64,000 nt of DNA from the IMG/VR virus record IMGVR_UViG_3300028569_002824, positions 1 to 64,000 of that record; one strand, written 5' to 3'. The notes under the pieces were generated by a model. That model was not told the origin of the DNA and made no database searches. It saw only the letters and a program-made list of their open reading frames with translations. Of the stretch, positions 46,337-61,996 are shown piece after piece (within the stretch, counting starts at the first letter, position 1; each line of letters opens with the position of its first letter). A program made the position numbers and the translations under genes. Source of the stretch: a virus.

Positions 46337-46758
46337 TTTAAAATATCATCCAACACTTTTTCGAATCTCCAAAATATTTTAGGTTTGCACTCCAATTTTG
46401 TCAAAAACCCAGCCCAGTCAATTTCGTCAAGCTGCAGTTGACTAGTTGGAATCACTTCGCTTACTAAATTAATATCACTGAGCTTTTTTACAGTAACTAA
46501 AAATAAAGTAACTTGCTTTGTTATATTGGTTCGTTTTTTATTAAAGTAATTTACTACGTAATTTGTTGATAATTTATTTTTATGAACTTTGATTCCCGTT
46601 TCTTCCCAACATTCTCTTATAGCAGCCTCCATTAAATCTTCTCCTTCTTCAACACCGCCTTTAGGAAACGAAAAACTGTTGGTATAAGAAGCGTTGGTTG
46701 GATGACAGAGTAATACTTTATTGTTATACTGAAGAATAATGCCTGCAGCGATCTTCAT
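46333..46758 (-). CDS. Nudix hydrolase
   Basis: PKGGVEEGEDLMEAAIRECWEETG. Confidence 0.93.
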   Translation of the reverse strand: MKIAAGIILQYNNKVLLCHPTNASYTNSFSFPKGGVEEGEDLMEAAIRECWEETGIKVHKNKLSTNYVVNYFNKKRTNITKQVTLFLVTVKKLSDINLVSEVIPTSQLQLDEIDWAGFLTKLECKPKIFWRFEKVLDDILK

Positions 46759-47162
46759 GTTGTTTCGAGTGTAATAATTTTTGTTAAATTTGTCATACCA
46801 TATTGAGCATCTCTCAGATTTGACTCTACTTTATTTAAGTATTCTACTACGAGTTCGTTGTTGTTAATTTCTTCGTCTATTTTAATAATAACATCATTAG
46901 ACAAAATAGAGTCATTAATAGTTTTAATGTTGAGTGACACTGGAGATTCCGCCTCTAATTTTTGCTTGATTGTTTTTGCAGCCTTATCTTTTGCTTTCTT
47001 GAGCTTTTGTATTTGTTGTTTGTGAAACATTAGTCTTCCAACCCAGTAATGTCTTACTGAAGGCAATGCCATCTGAGCGTCCTTGATGTTGATTTCATCA
47101 AATTTCAAAAACGTTTCGATTTTTTCGTGATATTCGTACATGAGGTTTGATGAGTCAGTCAT
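46755..47162 (-). CDS. Recombination mediator, UvsY-like (start probably 47162)
   Basis: Helical ~135 aa near uvsW; DEINI....LPSVRHYW pattern. Confidence 0.6.
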   Translation of the reverse strand: MTDSSNLMYEYHEKIETFLKFDEINIKDAQMALPSVRHYWVGRLMFHKQQIQKLKKAKDKAAKTIKQKLEAESPVSLNIKTINDSILSNDVIIKIDEEINNNELVVEYLNKVESNLRDAQYGMTNLTKIITLETT

Positions 47163-47224
47163 AAAGAGATGTAATTTATAGTATAACCAAACAAAAATAA
47201 AACAACCCAAATAGGCTTTAAATG

Positions 47225-47541
47225 TCTTTAAGTTCCGGTTATTCAGATTGAAGGAGGGAGGTTCCCCATTGCTGAGAAAACCTCCCTGTCTTTGAAATTC
47301 CGTTTAAAACGAGTCTCAGTCGGGGTAACAAGCTTCAAAAAATCCTGTGATTAATATGCCCCCTCGGTTGTCCTGTAAGGGCTGGCTTGAGTGGTCCTGG
47401 CAAATGCCAGACAACGGTCACGCAAATAGCGCACATCGAGAAATGTTTTTAATTTATTAATCGCTGATTCCTGTTTTTTATCTTCCTACGAAGACCTACG
47501 CAAATGCGCTCCGGCTAGTCCTAACAGCGATGTTGTTAATA
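47225..47541 (-). ncRNA. Candidate structured non-coding RNA of unknown class
   Basis: ORF-free, GC-enriched, nested helices; G-U pairs and a GCAA tetraloop work only on the minus strand; TAAGTA at 47547-47552. Confidence 0.65.
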
Positions 47542-47616
47542 TCGTTTACTTAGTATATTTGTCAACCATATTAAGAAATTATTTTTTTTTTTTATTAATT
47601 TACATTAAATAACACT

Positions 47617-47859
47617 ATGGAATTTCACGAGTTAGTAGAAAAAATCCTACAAGAAGACAATGTATCAGGAGGATCTGGATCAGCGTTCGGTCCAAATGTT
47701 GGATCTACATCTACCACATTTAGCGGAGATAACTATGCCAAGGGTGATGCTAGACGAATAACCGGTGTATTTGATGGAATTTTAACTCGCAATGGAATGA
47801 ATAAAAAAGCAAACAAAAGGAAAGCCAAAAAACGTAAAAAGGACAAAAAATGGAATTAG
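47617..47859 (+). CDS. Small late protein with a basic tail
   Basis: TAAATA 5 nt upstream; MEFHELVEKILQE leader. Confidence 0.7.
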   Translation: MEFHELVEKILQEDNVSGGSGSAFGPNVGSTSTTFSGDNYAKGDARRITGVFDGILTRNGMNKKANKRKAKKRKKDKKWN

Positions 47860-48290
47860 GGCACTGGAGATTAGCAGAGGGGATACAACTTAATCTAAGT
47901 GCATTTGGGTTTATTTATGAAATTACAAATAATGCTACGGAACGTCCTAAAAAGTATATAGGCAAAAAGCAATGTGTGTTTAAAGTAAGAAAAAAACCTC
48001 TAAAAGGCAAAACTAGAGCCAGATTAGGAGTTAAAGAATCGGATTGGAAAACTTACACAGGCTCATCTAAAGAGTTAAACGATGATATTAAAAAATACGG
48101 AAAAGAAATGTTCGATTTTGTAATTTTAGAGTGGTGCGATTCAAAATTTGAGTTAGGATATAAGGAAATCAAAAAACAAATAATGGAAGACGTTTTATTA
48201 AGTGAAGATTATTATAATGGAATAATAAATTGTCGCTTGGGACGCGTTCCTAAAGCATTTAATACACGTGAAAGTAAAAGTATTTCCTAA
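47850..48290 (+). CDS. GIY-YIG family endonuclease
   Basis: GFIYEITN...KYIGKK...SDWKTYTGSS...YYN. Confidence 0.85.
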   Translation: MELGHWRLAEGIQLNLSAFGFIYEITNNATERPKKYIGKKQCVFKVRKKPLKGKTRARLGVKESDWKTYTGSSKELNDDIKKYGKEMFDFVILEWCDSKFELGYKEIKKQIMEDVLLSEDYYNGIINCRLGRVPKAFNTRESKSIS

Positions 48291-48709: not shown

Positions 48710-49354
48710 TTAAACTGCCGACGGGTCAATTAACGTACCGTCTTCTTCTCCGTATCCACAACCATTATCTTTAATGTATAATTTCATTTGCGGAACTCTC
48801 ATGTCGGGCGGACCATCTAACCGTATTACTGCTGGACAGTCTTCTCTAGGAAAGAAAGCTCCTGTATTTTTCTCGTATGAAGCGATCATTGCATCAAAAA
48901 TGTTATCAATTTCTTCTCTGAATGCTGGATCAGATTCTCTTCCTTCTCTTGATACAATAGGAATTTCAGGTCTTGCTGGAACGTAAAAAATAACATCTAT
49001 GTGTTTTAACGATAGTGCAGCAATTGTTTTACATTCCATCACAAAATCTGTTGTAAATCCTTTTGTTTCTTTAACGTGATGCCATAAAGTATAAGCAATA
49101 TTATCAATTGGACATCTATCGAAAATAACAAACTTGTCATCTGACGTACTTGCTAATTGAGTTTCATCTATAAGAGCATTTAGTATAGCTTTTTGAGAAT
49201 CTGGATCACCATCCTTGTTTAATTTAATTTGTTGTTCTTTAATGATGTCTCTGTACGTTTTTTGAGGCTTTTTGTACATTGGCCATTGTTTAATAAAGTT
49301 GTCTATTAGAGTGGATTTACCTACACAATGGGCTCCTATTAGGGCAATACGCAT
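48710..49354 (-). CDS. P-loop nucleotide kinase-like protein (dNMP kinase/NadR-like)
   Basis: GAHCVGKST, FDRCPID..AY. Confidence 0.75.
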   Translation of the reverse strand: MRIALIGAHCVGKSTLIDNFIKQWPMYKKPQKTYRDIIKEQQIKLNKDGDPDSQKAILNALIDETQLASTSDDKFVIFDRCPIDNIAYTLWHHVKETKGFTTDFVMECKTIAALSLKHIDVIFYVPARPEIPIVSREGRESDPAFREEIDNIFDAMIASYEKNTGAFFPREDCPAVIRLDGPPDMRVPQMKLYIKDNGCGYGEEDGTLIDPSAV

Positions 49355-61252: not shown

Positions 61253-61306
61253 TACAAATACTTATGCTAAACTGTAAATTTAACTTAGATGAAACTTAAA
61301 ACCACG

Positions 61307-61510
61307 TCACATCGTACCCAACTCTAAGTTCGTGTCAATAATTTTTTGCAGTTTTTCCTCATGCAACTCAACAAGAGCGTCAATTGATTGTCTTTTAGAC
61401 CACATTTTAAATCTAAACTTTTCAACGATTGCTGCTAAATCATCCGTTAGTTCGTCAAGTGGAGGTTTAGTTAGCAAAAAATGAGCGACTTCTTCTATTG
61501 TCATGTGCAT
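61307..61510 (-). CDS. Hypothetical protein (start may be 61504)
   Basis: TTGACA-N16-TACTAT upstream. Confidence 0.55.
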   Translation of the reverse strand: MHMTIEEVAHFLLTKPPLDELTDDLAAIVEKFRFKMWSKRQSIDALVELHEEKLQKIIDTNLELGTM

Positions 61511-61554
61511 ATAGTATAATAATAATTTGAGTTGTCAATACAGCAGTTTTAAAA

Positions 61555-61996
61555 TGGTGGAGGTGAGGGGATTCGAACCCCTGTTTTTATAATCTCTGCT
61601 AAAAGATACTACATGCTTTAATGAATTTGACATTTGTTGACTAAAGGCTGTCTTGGCTCATTGACCATGCTTTTTAAGTCTGCCTGTATGTGTGAATAAA
61701 GATCACATACTACCTATGACTAGTTTTACCGCGTTAGTCATCTCACGCAAGAACCTCTGCGTTTCAAAATACTTTTAGAGGATCCAGTATTAGGCTCTTA
61801 AGCTTCGAGAGAATAAGCTTCATCAGCGGTAACGAGAAACTCGCTAGCGTTGTTAAAGATATACTCCGCCTCAGCAAAGAGGTCAGAATTATCAAGTTCT
61901 GCATTTAGGTTTTTAATAGATGTTTAAAGAGGCCAACTATTATCCTCTACATGCACTTTTAGTTTTTAATTATAAATCGAAAACCAGTACACCCCC
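61555..61996 (-). ncRNA. ssrA: tmRNA (442 nt)
   Basis: 5' GGGGGTG pairs with 3' CACCTCC-ACCA (G3-U alanine determinant); T-arm AGGGGTTCGAATCCCCT; internal tag ORF at 61902-61798. Confidence 0.92.

Follow-up and report, generated by a model that had tools for sequence, protein, structure and literature searches.

The window analysed here is a 64,000-nucleotide (nt) stretch of viral DNA (positions 1 to 64,000 of IMG/VR record IMGVR_UViG_3300028569_002824, a 124-kb viral record with an estimated completeness of 58%) that carries most of its genes on the minus strand. On this strand, at 47232-47531, it almost certainly encodes a structured RNA of about 300 nt whose pairing is kept across 41 distinct homologous sequences. 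To judge from sequence comparison it belongs to a previously undescribed family, new in the sense that Rfam 15 has no match for it and full-text literature searches turned up no description. We favor reading it as an independently transcribed, early, trans-acting RNA, with protein binding as a scaffold or decoy its likeliest mode; to this statement as a whole we give a probability of about 45%. The locus is laid out as follows, in window coordinates.

46755-47162, minus strand: open reading frame (ORF) for a 135-amino-acid protein downstream of the RNA, at the uvsY position; uvsY label unconfirmed
47178-47207, minus strand: second promoter-like element, GGTTGT-18-TACTAT, before the uvsY-position gene; post hoc pattern
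47232-47531, minus strand: structured RNA, about 300 nt; nhmmer and covariance-model matches, alignment A4, structure test
47538-47565, minus strand: predicted sigma-70-type promoter of the RNA, TTGACA (47565-47560), 16-nt spacer, GATATT (47543-47538); consensus scan, 10/12 matches
47617-47859, plus strand: divergent ORF for an 80-amino-acid protein with a Lys-rich tail; start 51 nt from the -35 box of the RNA promoter

Homologues and fold of the RNA

A first-pass annotation of the window, made from its letters, had described this region as an ORF-free gap enriched in G+C, and it is: the 406-nt stretch 47211-47616 holds no ORF of at least 38 amino acids (table 11), and G+C is 0.457 over 47232-47531 vs 0.351 for the whole window. 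With TGA or TAG read as sense (table 4; TAG=Q) no ORF in the locus exceeds 76 amino acids. Because no ORF appears under the three codes, and because the loops of aligned relatives differ by 1-2-nt insertions and deletions, we judge the RNA to be non-coding. The hairpins and complementary segments listed in the annotation are all present on the minus strand, including AUCGCUG (47531-47525) with CAGCGAU (47466-47460), CUCG (47440-47437) with CGAG (47366-47363), and GUUGUC (47415-47410) with GACAAC (47372-47367). The folding energy of the single sequence is not significant alone (z = -1.9 for the minus strand, -1.3 for the plus strand).

We collected relatives in several ways. The downstream protein led to five related viral contigs, four of which carry a similar upstream stretch with visible compensatory changes. 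Two DNA patterns, drawn from separate conserved cores, were then scanned: pattern 1 matched 19 viral stretches, and pattern 2 matched 27 viral and 22 metagenome stretches together with two stretches in the genomes of 185,579 species. All 18 full-length pattern-1 matches carry the pattern-2 core unchanged, so the invariance of that core is not a search artifact; matches to pattern 2 alone do vary inside pattern 1. A profile of the downstream protein gave 80 further loci, and a nucleotide profile (nhmmer) recovered 81 full-length copies in viral and metagenome contigs, reducing to the 41 distinct sequences of alignment A4 (RNAalifold was run on 24, later on 41). Two pattern stretches, L049 and L137, were set aside as chance; neither the profile nor the covariance model matches them, and L137, one of the two from the species-genome scan, has a G+C of 0.66. 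That scan, which detects only copies with 25 specified core bases unchanged, gave no bacterial copy at this level. A full copy does lie on a 4461-nt contig of 33% G+C (CALBDR010000091.1) binned in a ‘Candidatus Melainabacteria’ metagenome-assembled genome; this is most likely a phage contig binned together with a bacterium, and at best a weak hint of the host. Searched with blastn against 50,697 phage records, a 401-nt region around the RNA gave only two chance 43-nt matches to a Sulfolobus virus, and its 8-kb surroundings gave no match.

No known family accounts for the RNA. With the 4227 models of Rfam 15 at gathering thresholds, the sole match in the whole window is a tmRNA gene elsewhere, at 61555-61996; at 47000-47800, permissive filters and E up to 10 gave four matches of 14-18 bits vs thresholds of 39-80; and eight other diverse family members gave nothing on the RNA with E up to 5. 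The annotation had likewise failed to match it to tmRNA, RNase P, 6S, signal recognition particle RNA or intron cores. At 47232-47531 there is no tRNA-like domain, no tag frame, and no tmRNA-clan or ARAGORN match; as for a group I intron, no gene is interrupted, the promoter abuts the first helix, and no intron model matches. The window holds no tRNA genes. A search of the full-text literature, supplementary tables not covered, returned no description of this RNA. A 2023 catalogue of structured RNAs predicted in IMG/VR viruses has 8,495 candidates with a mean length of 67 nt, and its supplement may list pieces of this one (PMC10690425). The tmRNA gene just mentioned (minus strand, RF00023, 98.5 bits) is complete and in one piece, lacks an ARAGORN call, and is adjoined by about 300 nt of ORF-free DNA (61253-61554).

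The structure model has 69 pairs in 15 helices, the main ones from RNAalifold with a pseudoknot added, and was tested on A4. Standard pairs fill 93.9% of model cells, vs 36-48% when partners are slid by 1-3 columns; 29 pairs changed on both sides, vs 7-15 in the slid controls; the covariation score is 0.221 vs 0.045-0.082; and none of 500 shuffles reached the observed model values. With an effective number of sequences of 1.67, the alignment represents one shallow clade, and because its members are closely related the slid controls are the fairer comparison. Many pairs are G-U on the minus strand (for example, columns 139:153, 201:217, 202:216, and 314-316:334-336); they would be A-C on the opposite strand, which fixes the strand, as the annotation had argued. 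Its proposal of an unannotated, multi-domain structured phage RNA is borne out by conservation and covariation in relatives.

These results leave little room for a DNA-level element (protein-binding sites, a divergent promoter region), for a protein gene that is recoded or decayed, or for a fold that arose by chance. An unremarkable fold energy and a position between divergent genes would suit such an origin, but the compensatory changes and G-U pairs are strand-specific and track helices, none of the three codes yields an ORF, and in a sister clade the same two genes are separated by only about 190 nt of A+T-rich DNA. We consider it extremely improbable that this is not an RNA gene.

The alignment shows a predicted fold in three parts: a 72-nt 5' domain with a 7-base-pair closing helix, a knotted central core, and a 3' hairpin domain. 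Its elements, from the 5' end of the RNA, are:

47460-47531, minus strand: 5' domain, 72 nt, closed by P1, holding GCC/GGU, two hairpins and an A-rich return strand (structure test)
47531-47525 with 47466-47460, minus strand: helix P1; 4/7 pairs change on both sides
47515-47513 with 47496-47494, minus strand: helix GCC/GGU; 2/3 pairs change on both sides
47509-47498, minus strand: GCGC hairpin GCGCAUUUGCGU, inside the 5' domain
47493-47482, minus strand: hairpin CUUC-GUAG-GAAG; 4/4 pairs change on both sides, in 5-17 sequences each
47441-47459, minus strand: A-rich single-stranded linker UAAUAAAUUAAAAACAUUU; conserved A4 columns 111-128
47420-47432, minus strand: hairpin P3 GCGCUAUUUGCGU (GCGC-UAUUU-GCGU); 3/4 pairs change on both sides, 100% paired, loop varies
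47410-47415, minus strand: pseudoknot 5' strand GUUGUC, pairing with GACAAC (47372-47367) in the P6 loop; 99.6% paired
47397-47410, minus strand: hairpin P4 CUGGCAUUUGCCAG (CUGGCA-UUU-GCCAG); 3/4 pairs change on both sides (helix listed at 47409-47398), 99.4% paired
47389-47385 with 47333-47329, minus strand: long-range helix P5, CAAGC/GCUUG; G-C to A-U in 9/41, 98.5% paired
47358-47382, minus strand: hairpin P6 (GCCCUU ... GGGGGC), stem 47382-47377 with 47363-47358; 3/6 pairs change on both sides
47334-47357, minus strand: variable hairpin P7 (AAUC-ACAG-GAUU in the window); 6/7 pairs change on both sides, 72% paired
47297-47328, minus strand: near-invariant junction UUACCCCGACUGAGACUCGUUUUAAACGGAAU; conserved A4 columns 257-292, no pairing shown
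47256-47286, minus strand: 3' hairpin P8 GGGAGGUUUUC ... GGGGAACCUCC; 9-11 pairs, 95% paired, loop varies
47232-47255, minus strand: conserved 3' tail CCUCCUUCAAUCUGAAUAACCGGAAC, with invariant GAUCU and CGGA (A4, A5 conservation)

P1, proposed in the annotation, is among the covarying helices. One relative (L048:2993-3345) carries a 19-nt insertion inside the covarying 5'-domain hairpin, whose tip therefore tolerates expansion. We sought a pairing partner for the linker 47441-47459 and found none. At the center of the fold, GUUGUC and GACAAC do pair as the annotation had it, and two of the six pairs change on both sides (U-A to C-G in two sequences, C-G to U-A in four): two adjacent pairs in L065 and L091, one pair in L016 and L027. 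The nested placement given to this helix does not stand, as P5 and the pseudoknot cross each other to form a knotted core; a nested rival, GUC with the GAC after P4 (47396-47394), is broken in L065 and L091. The enclosing CUCG/CGAG helix is invariant in 41/41, which leaves it without either support or refutation; a real helix at this place would stack on the pseudoknot. Both GACAAC and CGAG lie in the near-invariant 13-nt loop of P6, a fully paired stem with C-G changed to U-A in 13 sequences. P7 differs among members in length and sequence, is deleted in L012, and is only 72% paired because its length changes.

Other candidate pairings fared less well. A helix between 47333-47338 and 47248-47253 (UUGAAG/CUUCAA), drawn in the annotation, is 81.6% paired without covariation and broken at 3-4 positions in 8-18 sequences. 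UGAAGC with GUUUUA conflicts with P5 and has C-A mismatches in two sequences; where the 3' domain begins, AGAU reaches only 69% pairing with AUCU; and a CCG/CGG pairing in the junction shows no covariation in A4. Because CUCG, CCCGAC, ACGGA, GAUCU and CCGGA never vary, their possible partners are indistinguishable. The long hairpin once placed at 47255-47287 is kept as P8 (47286-47256), without its GCAA cap, which is not conserved; P8 changes are one-sided only (G-U to G-C or A-U). The P8 loop also holds a short reading frame (M-G-N-L-P-P-S-I in the window), discarded because its start codon is present in only about 17/41 (by eye).

Conservation peaks in unpaired segments (the A-rich linker, the P6 loop, the junction and the 3' tail) and is lowest in hairpin loops; P7 varies too. 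This pattern bears on the suggestion that the RNA is a CsrB-like sponge titrating a protein through three GC(U)AUUUGC hairpin loops. The three hairpins exist in the window, and a multi-hairpin RNA with a few AGGA motifs, six in the window, does recall CsrB and RsmZ. However, the first hairpin is replaced by a shorter form, GCG-UUAUA-GC, in 33/41, and the remaining loops vary in both length and sequence while their stems covary; only two of the six AGGA motifs are kept in at least 37/41, one of them in the pseudoknot, with the rest in 5-9/41; conservation peaks in junctions rather than in the repeated loops; and there is no array of conserved GGA loops as in CsrB and RsmZ. We consider a sponge of this kind very improbable.

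Distribution and neighboring genes

The RNA occurs in a single subclade of uncultured, T4-like phages from lakes. Among 35 loci in which the downstream protein shares at least 65% identity with that of the window, 32 have it; two of the exceptions offer too short an upstream stretch or end in a different gene at the edge of the contig, and in the third the RNA lies elsewhere on the contig, as copy L030. With nhmmer filters off and covariance model R1, it is absent from 45 sister-clade loci (downstream protein 45-58% identical), from four whole sister-clade records including a 100% complete one of 218,400 nt, and from cyanophage S-SM2, with a best score anywhere of 11.7 bits. The one long gap in the sister clade, in L093, looks like an extended version of the small protein gene rather than a diverged RNA. 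The window's own record has one copy. The simplest history would be that the RNA gene was inserted once, between divergent promoters, in the ancestor of this subclade.

Within that subclade the RNA shows stronger conservation than either flanking gene: over the same 25 loci, pairwise nucleotide identity averages 0.789 in the RNA, against 0.695 in the gene downstream and 0.605 in the gene upstream. Its usual position is between the small basic-protein gene and the uvsY-position gene, which is next downstream, 70-110 nt away on the same strand, in 18/24 distinct members; in the other 6/24 another gene, of at least four kinds, comes first and the RNA is unchanged. The uvsY label rests on gene order (uvsY - small ORF - uvsW in S-SM2), with which protein size agrees. 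The annotation's uvsY keeps its place in the order and finds no likeness in sequence or profile: the protein has no Pfam, PHROG, PDB-profile or tblastn match, and hhalign against S-SM2 UvsY gave a probability of 0.1.

The search for a partner gave two candidates in the neighborhood. The small basic protein family adjoins the RNA in 78 loci and is ruled out as an RNA-specific partner by its presence in 43 RNA-free loci. A 214-amino-acid P-loop NTPase with thymidylate-kinase-like PHROGs (48710-49354, minus strand) occurs in 18/32 RNA-bearing and 0/48 RNA-free loci, and a Cys-rich 203-amino-acid protein replaces it in 41/48 RNA-free and 0/32 RNA-bearing loci; given a single gain event, this split marks the clades and is not evidence of partnership. 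As a partner for the anti-Shine-Dalgarno-like CCUCCUU we looked for bS21, and the 124-kb record, at 58% completeness, has no bS21 gene.

The 80-amino-acid protein (47617-47859) has a conserved GGxGSAFGP...FSGDNYAxGDAR core, a Lys/Arg-rich tail, and no Pfam or PHROG match; its family lies divergently upstream of the uvsY-position gene in 71/80 loci of both clades. A SegE-type GIY-YIG endonuclease gene (47850-48290, plus strand; PF19835, E = 2.6e-29) keeps the same place in 72/80 loci, again in both clades, whereas a free-standing homing endonuclease would be expected to turn up sporadically. Among cultured phages the nearest are T4-like cyanophages, with a best isolate UvsW match of 32% identity, and the DNA runs holding most of our query are lake and freshwater metagenomes. 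Shine-Dalgarno-like motifs precede 6/64 window genes of at least 120 amino acids, against a background of 7.8%, which suggests that the host initiates translation without Shine-Dalgarno pairing; gene upstream regions are A/T-rich (for example, TAAATAACATT).

Promoter, ends and transcripts

The predicted promoter of the RNA has the look of a strong early one. In 33 of the 40 distinct relatives whose upstream DNA reaches far enough, an exact TTGAC recurs at one set distance from P1 with a -10-like hexamer behind it; the remaining seven have near-variants of TTGAC or none. A start about 7 nt past the -10 box would place the 5' end at 47531, the first base of P1. The annotation had read a TAAGTA as a late-type promoter with a 5' end near 47541; the motif falls within the spacer of the sigma-70-type promoter. 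We set the 3' end where conservation stops, near 47232. Between the RNA and the uvsY-position gene lies the second promoter-like element, whose pattern GT(A/G)GA(T/C)-17-TAnnnT, written after viewing the same sequences, occurs in 29/41 RNA-bearing vs 5/37 sister-clade upstream regions and 4.8% of random 150-nt pieces. Its -35-like box is unlike TTGACA, and it may be a phage-specific (middle-type) promoter. A TATAAAT motif in the window overlaps its -10 part. At 20-60 nt past the RNA, about 24/41 members carry a G-run of at least four (by eye; e.g., GGGGCGGGG; L014, L009, L032 and L091 among them), which complements the conserved CCUCCCUCC in the 3' part of the RNA, in genomes of 33% G+C.

Metatranscriptomes, where the annotation had proposed looking for a discrete minus-strand transcript, do contain its sequence, in assembled contigs that cannot show strand or ends. 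Words sampled from a 1.1-kb query are found at 5-12% in six runs, and RNA-library contigs of 206, 196, 162, 132, 104 and 88 nt from four runs in four studies cover 47313-47527; the two longest lie wholly within the RNA. Loose letters past 47527 in one X20 contig presumably derive from a sequencing adapter, a hint only at a fragment end near 47525. The flanking genes are uncovered at 85% likeness in runs X16, X17 and X20, from which we draw nothing, since flanks diverge more among relatives and a contig is no proof of absence. Pieces of 31 nt at 47576-47610 were disregarded; they lie on an A-run.

Possible roles of the RNA

In the reading that we prefer, host RNA polymerase would make the RNA early in infection as its own unit, and the RNA would fold into a compact particle and act in trans. 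It would most likely bind a phage or host protein as a scaffold or decoy, with the long invariant unpaired segments (the junction 47297-47328, the P6 loop and the 3' tail) forming its binding or active surface. A phage precedent is the pRNA of phi29: transcribed from an early promoter, this structured RNA serves in trans as part of a protein machine. It differs in its size (about 120-174 nt), its carriers (phi29-like podoviruses) and its fold, our RNA has no Rfam match to it, and T4-type packaging motors are not known to need RNA.

The same position would also suit a cis-acting leader: the structured 5' part of an early mRNA encoding the recombination genes downstream (uvsY-position gene, NUDIX, UvsW) that, as a riboswitch or protein-binding leader, controls expression, stability or processing. 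The gene usually follows at short range on the same strand, there is no terminator in between, an RNA-library contig bridges the two, and a pseudoknotted core with invariant unpaired bases is aptamer-like. Against this, the association is not constant, as 6/24 members have a different first gene behind an unchanged RNA; the second promoter-like element intervenes in 29/41; there is no expression platform, neither a terminator nor a use of Shine-Dalgarno pairing that could be masked; and the sister clade has the same genes without the RNA. We regard the RNA as its own unit rather than a one-gene leader on these grounds. In addition, at about 300 nt and three domains it exceeds known riboswitches in size. 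A leader seems unlikely to us.

Several observations do weigh against an independent, trans-acting RNA. No intrinsic terminator-like site follows it, so that it may be read through into the downstream gene, and the bridging contig (151 nt, depth 2) spans 47282-47132, starting in the 3' hairpin and reaching into that gene. Being assembled contigs, the RNA-library records show presence rather than strand, ends or level, and DNA carry-over is possible. Regarding the fold, the shallowness of the clade means that shuffle controls exaggerate significance, and P8, P10 and P11 lack double-sided changes. No partner protein was found: the small basic protein also occurs in 43 RNA-free loci, and the P-loop NTPase may be a mere clade marker.

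Likenesses also exist to large orphan RNAs, of which GOLLD and ROOL are linked to phages. Like GOLLD, ROOL and OLE, this RNA has hundreds of nucleotides and an intricate, covariation-backed fold, comes from uncultured or phage DNA, and was found before its function; it differs in having no Rfam match, half their size or less, no tRNA neighbors such as GOLLD and ROOL usually have in phages, and a different host range. Self-association is reported for RNAs of the GOLLD/ROOL/OLE type (10.1101/2024.12.08.627333). The 3' tail of our RNA holds invariant palindromic tetranucleotides, GAUC and CCGG (A4), and it is pure conjecture that these could in principle mediate self-association here. Structured, pseudoknotted tmRNA genes behind an early promoter are described for aquatic T4-like phages (PMC9004378). 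Our RNA, with no tRNA-like domain or tag frame, is unlike these, and the window has its separate tmRNA gene.

A bolder possibility, which we also hold to be unlikely, is a novel catalytic or self-assembling RNA class, acquired by a lake-phage lineage and deployed early in infection, with an active site in the crossing helices and invariant junctions or oligomerization through GAUC/CCGG, or else a folded primer RNA firing an origin like T4 oriF. As to catalysis, large, intricately folded bacterial RNAs are often catalytic, and a pseudoknotted core with its invariant junction could be the center of a ribozyme that processes itself or acts on other RNA. The size, complexity and crossing long-range helices of the RNA would suit this, as would its long invariant unpaired stretches (47297-47328, P6 loop); no Rfam ribozyme family matches, however, and no conserved site resembles a processing junction. 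A ribozyme proper appears rather improbable.

An origin primer would work as at T4 ori(uvsY)/oriF, where the transcript forms a persistent R-loop in A+T-rich DNA and primes the leading strand; the fold would control the hybrid as in ColE1 RNA II, a structured primer RNA whose folding governs hybrid formation. The promoter here fires towards the uvsY-position gene, a position and direction that we take to match T4 oriF; UvsW, annotated as an RNA-DNA helicase in relatives, is two genes downstream; and the G-run of about 24/41 members (by eye) lies ahead of a very A+T-rich stretch. However, about 17/41 lack the G-run; GC skew, which tests T4-like phages only weakly, shows no inflection here, and no origin signal was found; and the sister clade has the same position without the RNA. 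An R-loop primer needs no pseudoknotted fold kept by covariation, and the T4 origin transcript, which starts from a middle-mode promoter, is not known to need a conserved fold. T4 origins use activator-dependent promoters of that middle type, and the promoter here is instead of the early sigma-70 type. We consider a primer improbable; if true, it would be the first structured origin RNA in a T4-type phage.

We suggest that an early, trans-acting, protein-binding RNA remains the best account of this gene, and that its interest extends beyond the locus. Few RNAs of 300 nt are both complex and pseudoknotted, and ribozymes or the cores of RNA-protein machines account for many of those characterized. 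This one belongs to a deep-branching, T4-like group of lake phages without a cultured relative, in which the clean split of sister clades by presence and absence provides a natural comparison for the partner search. What phages use large structured RNAs for is a question that stands equally for GOLLD and ROOL; here it has a defined object, with boundaries, a fold, a pseudoknot, a promoter and 41 natural variants.

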